A program made the position numbers and the translations under genes. The notes under the pieces were generated by a model that worked only from the letters and a program-made list of their open reading frames with translations, ran no database searches and was not told where the DNA came from. From a virus (lineage: Duplodnaviria; Heunggongvirae; Uroviricota; Caudoviricetes): 5,875 nucleotides of DNA. The stretch lies in the IMG/VR virus record IMGVR_UViG_2529292977_000021. One strand, 5' to 3'. Of the stretch, positions 5,036 through 5,875 are shown in pieces; position 1 is the stretch's first letter; each line of letters opens with the position of its first letter.

Positions 5036-5353
5036 AAAAATACCAACCCACCCCGCCCCACAGAACGCAGGGAAATACTTCGAGTTACCCGGCAGTGGTC
5101 AGGGGTTAAGTAGCCAGCCCGAGGCGTATGAACATGACGGCAGGGTTCAACTTTAATAACTATGCAGCAGTTTTTTGTTCCGCTACCCCGGCGTTAAGGG
5201 GAAACAGAGGGTTTCTCAGTGGGCGAAGTCAAACATCAGAATGGAAGGCATCCCGGGATCGGCAAAGAAGCAGCAATGGCGCTTTATATTGACATCAGCG
5301 CCATTGCAGGACAGGTAAGAGTTATCAGAGCGGTAACTAAGCGGTATGCGCCT

Positions 5354-5554
5354 TTACTTCAGAAAGTCTCTGGTGAGTGCACCGAAGATATTGTCAACGA
5401 TTTCGTCATCGAACTGCGAGGACTCATCTTCAGTTACAAGGTGACCACAATTTTTGCAGATGGCTCCCGCGAAACTGTCAGAGCCCTGCGGCTTAAAGGA
5501 TGTGTCAAAGACTTCGCCACCACATTCTGGGCAAGAAAACTTGATTGTATTCAT
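5354..5554 (-). CDS. Small zinc-ribbon protein (CPxCG...CxxCG) with an acidic C-terminal tail
   Basis: 66 aa from ATG 5554..5552 (MNTIKFSCPECGGEVFDTSFKPQGSDSFAGAICKNCGHLVTEDESSQFDDEIVDNIFGALTRDFLK); the ORF track begins 2 codons earlier at TTG. GAGGAA lies 7 nt upstream (revcomp of 5562-5567). Codon position 1 is about 62% purine. Preferred over the overlapping plus-strand ORF 5219..5575. Confidence 0.65.
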   Translation of the reverse strand: MNTIKFSCPECGGEVFDTSFKPQGSDSFAGAICKNCGHLVTEDESSQFDDEIVDNIFGALTRDFLK

Positions 5555-5647
5555 AACCAATTTCCTCTCGAGTAACAGACCCCTCAGAGGATACCACCTC
5601 GCCTGACGTGGTTAAAAAGCAGGCAACGCTAACCACAAGGAGCCGAC

Positions 5648-5866
5648 ATGCAGAAACGAGACCCCGTCATCATCGCGCCAGACTATACCGATGATGAACT
5701 TTATGAGTGGATGCACCAGAAAATTAAGGCGGCGCAGGATCTGAAATGGGCCAATGAAGCCAGGGCTAAGCAGGCTGAAAATCTGTCCGCTCTGGAGCAG
5801 GATATCACCAATCTGGAAAAAGCAGCGGCATTAAGCATTGCCAGAATGATTACATACCCGCGTTAA
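5648..5866 (+). CDS. Small hypothetical phage protein (72 aa), possibly Kil-like (KilR-sized) early protein
   Basis: ATG 5648 preceded by AAGGAG (5637-5642) with a 5-nt spacer. Same strand as the repressor and downstream of the PL-like promoter, the position and orientation of kilR in Rac (KilR is 73 aa from memory). No motif recognised; the Kil assignment is synteny-based only. Confidence 0.6.
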   Translation: MQKRDPVIIAPDYTDDELYEWMHQKIKAAQDLKWANEARAKQAENLSALEQDITNLEKAAALSIARMITYPR

Positions 5867-5875
5867 TAGCTAACC

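Follow-up and report, generated by a model that had tools for sequence, protein, structure and literature searches.

The DNA analysed here, hereafter the window, is a stretch of 5,875 nucleotides (nt) from IMG/VR virus record IMGVR_UViG_2529292977_000021, and its sequence places it in a DicA/Qin-type lambdoid prophage of Escherichia coli O157:H7, of which it covers the immunity and early region. Towards its right end, between a PL-type early promoter and ydfC, lies an exchangeable cassette of roughly 420 bp (5212..5630, as delimited by alignment with vB_EcoS-689R5 and K-12 Qin) that holds two open reading frames (ORFs): a 66-amino-acid (aa) C4 zinc-ribbon gene on the minus strand (5354..5554) and, on the plus strand, a 99-aa ORF (5276..5575) that contains the whole zinc gene. 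The two frames are codon-aligned in antisense, position 1 of one coinciding with position 3 of the other. We suggest that the cassette encodes two proteins from this same DNA, one per strand, a reading that the comparison of diverged cassettes makes moderately probable. The zinc gene belongs to a named, uncharacterised RefSeq family, so that the finding, although genuine, is of a gene already catalogued; what it adds is that the competing ORF most likely represents a second gene in these bases. Region 5000-5875 shares 99.5% identity with an E. coli O157:H7 prophage; of 5426 complete E. coli genomes, 4351 have similar sequence, and 826 of these contain at least 80% of the region. At the cassette edges, the homology on the left runs up to ...GTTAAGGGGAAA and that on the right resumes at the Shine-Dalgarno (SD) sequence of ydfC, as seen in two-piece matches (H30-H33); other Qin-type prophages carry ydfA-ydfB in the cassette's place, between the common PL leader and the ydfC SD.

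Read from its ATG (5554-5552) to its TAA (5356-5354), the minus-strand ORF specifies the protein MNTIKFSCPECGG...CKNCGH..., with the motifs C8-P-E-C11-G and C33-K-N-C36-G; from a TTG start it would span 5354..5560 and 68 aa. The ORF list and a reading of the motifs confirm the original prediction, made from the sequence without database searches, of a 66-aa minus-strand protein with a CPxCG...CxxCG ribbon at this place, and the strong acidity (12 Asp/Glu versus 5 Lys/Arg, net charge -7) and good SD that it had described are likewise present, the latter as GAGAGGA (5563..5569, read from sequence), 8 nt from the ATG. At the SD position, which lies beyond the end of the plus ORF, the sequence in relatives is GAAGGAA, AAGGAGGT or GAGGAGGT. 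Against NCBIfam NF047912, the ECs_2282 family, the protein scores 57.3 bits (cut-off 37; E 1e-15; residues 4-59 on profile positions 1-56 of 60), and it is essentially identical to the product of the RefSeq coding sequence at the locus in O157:H7 genomes, WP_001092153, annotated as 'ECs_2282 family putative zinc-binding protein'. It is a full member of NF047912, with no difference from it, and the family model is silent on the opposite-strand ORF. Homologues share 60-70% identity in Citrobacter, Klebsiella and Enterobacter and 53% in Serratia, with all four Cys retained, and a profile search of 1.8 billion representative proteins gave 66 clusters at E<1e-3, nearly all of 63-77 aa. The Cys ligands, whose conservation in homologues the prediction had put at stake, are the only invariant columns (C8, C11, C33, C36) among 30 homologues with a mean identity of about 35%, and in a smaller homologue alignment only a single, frameshift-like sequence departs from them. 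The 30-sequence alignment also shows a GAxCxxCG(H) motif, of which, besides the Cys, only the Gly is nearly invariant. Remote zinc-ribbon members are co-directional with their neighbours in ordinary operon gene rows. On these comparisons the zinc-ribbon ORF is a genuine conserved gene, above chance, and encodes a predicted C4 zinc-ribbon protein of a widespread family of about 65 aa.

No Pfam family exceeds its threshold with the zinc family (DUF5795 reaches 23.4 bits versus a cut-off of 27), and a PDB profile search with the family returned generic zinc-ribbon matches only, e.g., archaeal RNA polymerase Rpo1N and MasE. The AlphaFold2 model of the zinc protein is too poor for use (predicted local distance difference test, pLDDT, 55), and no literature was found on ECs2282, WP_001092153, NF047912 or phrog_21318. 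One zinc-ribbon relative with a degenerate C-terminus was seen in a high-GC, non-phage context (L172, a Logan contig; P0014); it overlaps the 3' end of a major facilitator superfamily transporter gene and may be a decayed remnant.

The plus-strand ORF had been described as a 118-aa frame that overlaps the zinc ORF entirely, and such a frame is present (5219..5575, from a GTG). It had also been judged spurious, and that judgement is not borne out: the ORF belongs to a PHROG family, is open in relatives, has an SD and an ATG in most lineages and changes in a pattern typical of coding sequence. With ATG 5276 as its start, it matches PHROG 21318 at 99 of 99 positions (E 2e-67), and the Citrobacter and Serratia plus ORFs match the same family with E 3e-32 and 1e-21. 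PHROG 21318 and RefSeq WP_001240336, the latter annotated in sister prophages, are this same ORF, with no function assigned there. The frame is open in all 15 diverged cassettes, from about eight lineages (Escherichia, Citrobacter, Klebsiella, Enterobacter, Serratia) and reaching down to 45% zinc-protein identity, with the zinc ORF intact too, and in each cassette it runs about 26-30 codons past the zinc stop through the homologous sequence M..TL.VDASAVAGQTRVVEAV.KRY.PL. In the Citrobacter, Klebsiella and Enterobacter lineages its ATG is preceded by an SD of the form GGAGG, AGGAG, AGGAGAGG or GAGGTG, and three lineages have an in-frame stop shortly before it. Homology between lineages ends at the start codon, the sequence upstream being unrelated, and within E. 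coli positions 5240-5275 are densely polymorphic (6:2:4 by codon position) without a codon pattern. We rejected the GTG start at 5219, since conservation stops at ATG 5276 and the upstream polymorphisms are not codon-like; judged by these alignments, the real start is most likely ATG 5276, giving 99 aa.

The plus ORF is always oriented with the surrounding operon and the zinc gene always opposed to it, both in PL operons (this window, Citrobacter freundii, Klebsiella michiganensis and P0013-type prophages) and in PR operons, where the cassette directly follows cro (C. amalonaticus, K. variicola). AlphaFold2 models the plus protein as alpha-alpha-beta-beta-alpha (pLDDT 74), a model with no PDB fold match (best Foldseek E 0.25), and there is no PDB sequence match; as far as these comparisons reach, the plus-strand protein is without recognisable relatives outside the cassette. 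Taken on its comparative record, the plus-strand ORF is probably a real gene. In one Enterobacter-type lineage (L095/L108; P0107, P0108, P0112, P0114) it lacks the usual ATG and extends upstream into a 126-aa protein, whose added N-terminus has a CKSCG motif of its own. A remote cassette, with about 30% zinc-protein identity, was found on an IMG/VR contig of 62% GC (L168), where the zinc ORF (74 aa, P0036) and the opposite-strand ORF (105 aa, P0117) were called by different pipelines; where it clears the zinc gene, the N-terminus of the opposite-strand product lines up in register with its enterobacterial counterpart and has Leu, Gln and Pro columns in common with it. Given this cassette, the antisense pair may be old.

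Selection was assessed on a parsimony tree of 13 cassettes, with changes inferred by parsimony and with an OLGenie-style omega (dNN/dNS); the small numbers and the parsimony tree are caveats that apply to all of these tests. Across the 201 bases of overlap, 118, 34 and 73 changes fall at plus-frame codon positions 1, 2 and 3, which are zinc-frame positions 3, 2 and 1. Zinc-synonymous changes make up 100 of the 225, compared with 24% expected, and the zinc-frame omega is 0.37 (confidence interval, CI, 0.23-0.56): the zinc gene is under purifying selection. The N-terminal 26 codons of the plus ORF (5276..5353) lie outside the zinc gene and are the sole stretch that tests plus coding alone; as tested, the stretch comprised 27 codons (5273-5353), one codon upstream of the ATG being included. 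There the changes are distributed 35:35:66 by codon position, and 65 of 136 are synonymous versus 28% expected (p=8e-7). In the 45 nt of this stretch that lie outside a hairpin described below, 43 of 83 changes are synonymous (p=4e-6). The plus-frame omega in the N-terminal stretch is about 0.4, and no other frame on either strand stays open across lineages in 5273-5353. In the overlap the plus-frame omega is 0.65 (CI 0.46-0.88), with 0.24% of bootstraps reaching 1, while the same estimator applied to the antisense frames of six ordinary neighbour genes gives 0.95-1.42. Zinc-synonymous changes per codon, for the L002/L009 pair, amount to 0.26 versus 0.39-0.49 in neighbour genes. Both frames show purifying selection beyond the effect of the other frame.

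Upstream of the zinc gene, a promoter is predicted on the minus strand at 5588..5615, with a -35 element TTAACC (5615-5610), a 16-nt spacer, a TG (5596-5595) and a -10 element TATCCT (5593-5588). The element TGnTATC(C/T)T, about 30 nt before the zinc ATG, is conserved in PL-context relatives, with a TT(A/C)ACC 16 nt further up, and TATCCT is retained in PR-context ones; we predict that this weak extended -10 promoter drives the zinc gene. Its spacer region holds a palindrome, ACCAC(5612-5608)-N10-GTGGT(5597-5593), which is kept in PL-context relatives and absent from PR-context ones, and which could be a protein-binding site. Beyond the zinc stop lies an inverted repeat (5273..5307) with an 11-bp stem, GCAATGGCGCT / AGCGCCATTGC, and a 13-nt loop. 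The hairpin is kept in 10 lineages, with double changes at three pairs, and G-U is commonest at one position, on the minus strand; its folding energy is about -20 kcal/mol on either strand, so that folding energy favours neither strand as its user. It could serve the zinc mRNA as a 3' hairpin, or else keep the plus-ORF start codon sequestered.

Transcription from the early promoter of a related prophage is on record in strain EDL933, where Cappable-seq places a transcription start site (TSS) at 1,848,930 on the genome minus strand, assigned to EDL933_RS09595 in all listed conditions (PMC10469882, supplement file 6). EDL933_RS09595 is the plus-type ORF of a sister prophage with a zinc-null allele, and the TSS lies 7 nt past TTGACC-18-TAAATT, the PL of that prophage, and 129 nt before the ORF's ATG. 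A copy of the window-type cassette was not found in the two 49-kb EDL933 stretches examined. Such zinc-null alleles recur: among 34 distinct E. coli-clade cassette variants in the loci examined, the zinc ORF carries the nonsense change E14* in three and E44* in one, and the plus ORF is intact in all 34, the zinc-null ones included. E14* is a C to A change at 5515 (GAA to TAA at zinc codon 14), which in the plus protein is F80L. The 33-mer around zinc codon 14 is wild type in 839 and E14* in 515 of the 5426 complete E. coli genomes, counts in which many genomes are presumably clonal O157 copies, and one strain can hold both alleles, one copy each. The strand annotated in RefSeq follows whichever ORF is intact, the 99-aa WP_001240336 appearing as a hypothetical protein where the zinc ORF is broken (sister prophages); the GenBank phage records Evi and vB_EcoS-640R1 have the plus ORF only, with the 118-aa GTG start.

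Several observations weigh against the proposal of two proteins from one DNA. In this window the plus-ORF SD is weak (AAGAAG) and its ATG lies inside the 11-bp stem, at about -20 kcal/mol. Within the E. coli clade, the plus-ORF N-terminal stretch has 6 synonymous versus 10 non-synonymous polymorphisms, and of the 33 polymorphisms in the overlap, 7 are plus-synonymous, compared with 26% expected, and 17 are zinc-synonymous. One small control gene has an antisense omega of 0.51 (CI up to 1.04). The codon-aligned antisense frame is open in four of five remote zinc-ribbon genes, two of those four lacking the N-terminal extension; with the frame open by chance in such genes, openness by itself is weak evidence. 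The predicted zinc-gene promoter fits 8 of 12 consensus positions and falls below the promoter-scan threshold, the occurrence of E14* in 515 complete genomes implies that the zinc gene is dispensable, at least in cryptic prophages, and the functional guess for the zinc protein, given below, takes its cue from position alone. Some of these points would be expected if the cassette were a single minus-strand moron unit of promoter, zinc gene and 3' hairpin, with the plus ORF as a shadow frame, an account that we regard as unlikely. Under it, the shadow would stay open since any stop in it requires the zinc gene to use TTA, CTA or TCA; remote homologues do often have an open shadow frame, the plus frame is near neutral within E. 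coli, and the window's plus ORF has its weak SD and buried ATG. The conserved stretch past the zinc stop would then be a 3' untranslated region or terminator, as the conserved hairpin with some compensatory changes and minus-strand G-U pairs could suggest, and the borders 5212-5630 fit a promoter-gene-hairpin unit. However, past the hairpin the period-3 pattern of substitution continues for a further 45 nt (43 of 83 changes synonymous, p=4e-6), a strong SD and an ATG stand exactly at the start of conservation in four other lineages, and the plus-frame omega of 0.65 in the overlap compares with about 1 in most controls. Nor do the zinc genes of eight lineages use TTA, CTA or TCA among their Leu and Ser codons (6 to 14 per sequence), except at codon 2, where the plus ORF ends, and in most lineages the T-run of the hairpin is 5-6 nt from the stem.

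A different account accepts that the plus ORF is translated and makes its protein irrelevant: ribosome cover would prevent Rho-dependent polarity on ydfC-dicF-dicB. An open frame would here span the 600-nt gap between PL and ydfC, selection would preserve the SD and the ATG and remove stops, and the ORF, SD and ATG are indeed kept although the amino acids are weakly constrained (omega 0.65 in the overlap, about 0.4 at the N-terminus); the plus ORF is also co-directional with the operon in every case, its end falling immediately ahead of the next gene's SD. We nevertheless consider this quite improbable, as the 27 N-terminal codons show constraint at the amino-acid level, the cassette is also kept in PR operons of phages with different downstream genes, and AlphaFold2 predicts a compact fold for the plus protein. 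The converse possibility, that the zinc ORF is an annotation artefact of the antisense frame of the plus ORF, would agree with the GenBank phages and PHROGs, which call the plus ORF alone, with the 515 genomes in which the zinc ORF is null and the plus ORF intact, and with the better AlphaFold2 model of the plus protein (pLDDT 74 versus 55). It is very hard to reconcile with the concentration of changes at zinc-frame third positions (118:34:73 by plus-frame position), which brings it close to refutation, and with the invariance of the four Cys across 30 sequences averaging about 35% identity. Furthermore, the remote homologues are ordinary operon genes, the plus-type ORF is not intact in three of the four remote lineages checked (L173 and L175 without the N-terminal extension, L174 with an internal stop), and the zinc SD, situated past the end of the plus ORF, is conserved. 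We give this possibility very little credence.

If the cassette does encode both proteins, the plus ORF would be read from the early promoter (PL here, as the first early gene; PR elsewhere) and the zinc gene from a separate, weak extended -10 promoter that converges on PL. Because of this convergence, the zinc gene would be favoured when PL is repressed, in lysogeny, and disfavoured when PL fires, and the cassette would yield different products in these two states. In its strictest form the nested pair would be a strand switch, the repressed promoter leading to the zinc protein and the active one to the 99-aa protein, with converging transcription silencing the zinc gene; we put this forward as a tentative possibility. 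Our guess, which follows from its sieB-like place and orientation only, is that the zinc protein may be a lysogen-expressed accessory (moron-type) factor whose zinc knuckles and C-terminal helix would bind a partner.

The comparison with sieB made in the original prediction is supported by annotated records, in which sieB lies on the opposite strand, against the promoter-proximal PL operon, in both lambda and Rac; here PL (5008-5035) is on the plus strand and the zinc gene (5554-5354) on the minus strand, against the PL-like operon as had been stated. The gene was also correctly described as unrelated to sieB in size and type: SieB is a protein of 184 aa in lambda and 162 aa in Rac, whereas the window encodes a 66-aa, soluble-looking zinc ribbon, and the SieB family is not among the Pfam, NCBIfam or PHROG matches of the window protein. 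The sieB gene, which is expressed in the lysogen and encodes a membrane-associated protein, also differs in not being nested inside another ORF.

The further suggestion, that an acidic zinc ribbon is a candidate anti-defence or DNA-mimic factor, found no support. A net charge of -7 to -13 is limited to the enterobacterial subfamily, and remote members range from -6 to +9 with mostly basic tails. Since acidity is not a family-wide trait, and since the acidic GAN codons are the antisense of hydrophobic NTC codons of the plus protein, the DNA-mimic idea carries no weight, and we rejected a DNA-mimic/anti-restriction reading. Restriction-alleviation proteins of the Lar/Ral type (PF14354; PHROGs 599 and 6422) are similar in being small phage CxxC...CxxC proteins of early regions, and PHROG 6422 matches the window zinc protein below threshold (E 0.0098). 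Lar itself (PF14354) was rejected, as it has no match to the window protein at E<=0.1 and matches 6 of 30 relatives weakly, the best (E 2.8e-4) below threshold. The zinc-binding YdaE of Rac was also rejected, with no BLASTP alignment and an hhalign probability of 0.2%. The zinc ribbon matches the N-terminal part of a longer uncharacterised family, PHROG 4852 (E 1e-9). The PADLOC candidate PDC-M14A matches the window protein at E 0.0019 (16.5 bits, positions 18-67 of 152, in the N-terminal domain only) and remote zinc relatives at E 2e-7 and 2e-6. Among the neighbours of remote zinc-ribbon genes, Pfam and PADLOC gave no family or defence clue.

Antisense overlapping genes of enterohaemorrhagic E. 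coli (EHEC) are reportedly mostly young or taxonomically restricted; in the cassette pair, the embedded partner, the zinc gene, is the older one and belongs to a widespread family. The EHEC examples include ano/ECs2385, asa and three overlapping genes in EDL933 (PMC5960689, PMC6294744, PMC9927249), and they resemble the cassette in that a coding ORF of an EHEC genome lies entirely within another ORF on the opposite strand. They were reportedly found from RNA-seq and Ribo-seq signals, whereas the pair described here is known by comparison, in five genera and in both frames. The cassette locus is not mentioned in these papers.

The remainder of the window has a lambdoid layout. On the minus strand lie a gene for a DnaC-like loader (647-1393), a 402-aa replication protein (1400-2608) with the linker QEQEQEQEQEKEQEQ, a YdaT-type gene (3238-3663) and a cro/YdaS-type gene (3660-3962), together with a 186-aa ORF (2715-3275) between the replication and YdaT-type genes that has no match in Pfam, NCBIfam or PADLOC. 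The PR promoter is TTGACT-18-TAAACT (4020-3991, minus strand). On the plus strand follow the repressor (about 4060-4431) and a PaaA2/ParE toxin-antitoxin pair (about 4452-4923), the PaaA2-type antitoxin and ParE toxin occupying the place between repressor and PL that is the position of rexAB in lambda. After this pair, an inverted repeat with 22-nt arms (4942-4988) resembles a terminator of the immunity transcript. The PL-type early promoter, TTGACT-16-TAAACT (5008-5035, plus strand; -35 at 5008-5013, -10 at 5030-5035), is an inverted copy of PR, with 24-nt arms that are 79% complementary and form one promoter-operator module; the operator half-site GTTTAGTGTTT occurs in three copies at OR (3973-4041) and two at OL (4995-5027, at 4995-5005 and 5017-5027).

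The PL leader (5041-5211) is kept across prophages that differ in immunity region and downstream cassette, and is 75% identical even in a record named Actinobacillus phage vB_Apl-pPE4; a small minus-strand ORF at the equivalent place in that phage proved to be unrelated. Folding of the leader (5042-5215) showed no unusual structure (z = +1.0), with no Rfam match to it, and an Rfam scan of the window found no RNA family, the best hit being a chance miRNA match (E 0.33). Downstream of PL come the cassette and then ydfC (5648-5866, plus strand), with dicB next in the matching genome; in K-12 Qin, ydfC and dicB are separated by the small RNA dicF.

Whether bacteria and phages have long antisense overlapping genes is a matter of dispute, and for most candidates the case is made by expression signals alone. 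The support for the cassette is evolutionary, covers both frames and extends over five genera, and as the cassette is short and each frame can be mutated singly, it offers a clean test case. It also exposes an annotation problem: GenBank phages and PHROGs call one strand, RefSeq calls the other or switches strand upon a single nonsense nucleotide polymorphism, and one of two probably real proteins is absent from every record. Finally, we note that the cassette lies directly upstream of ydfC and then dicB, so that converging transcription within it could alter the leaky expression of DicB, a cell-division inhibitor, in O157:H7 lysogens.

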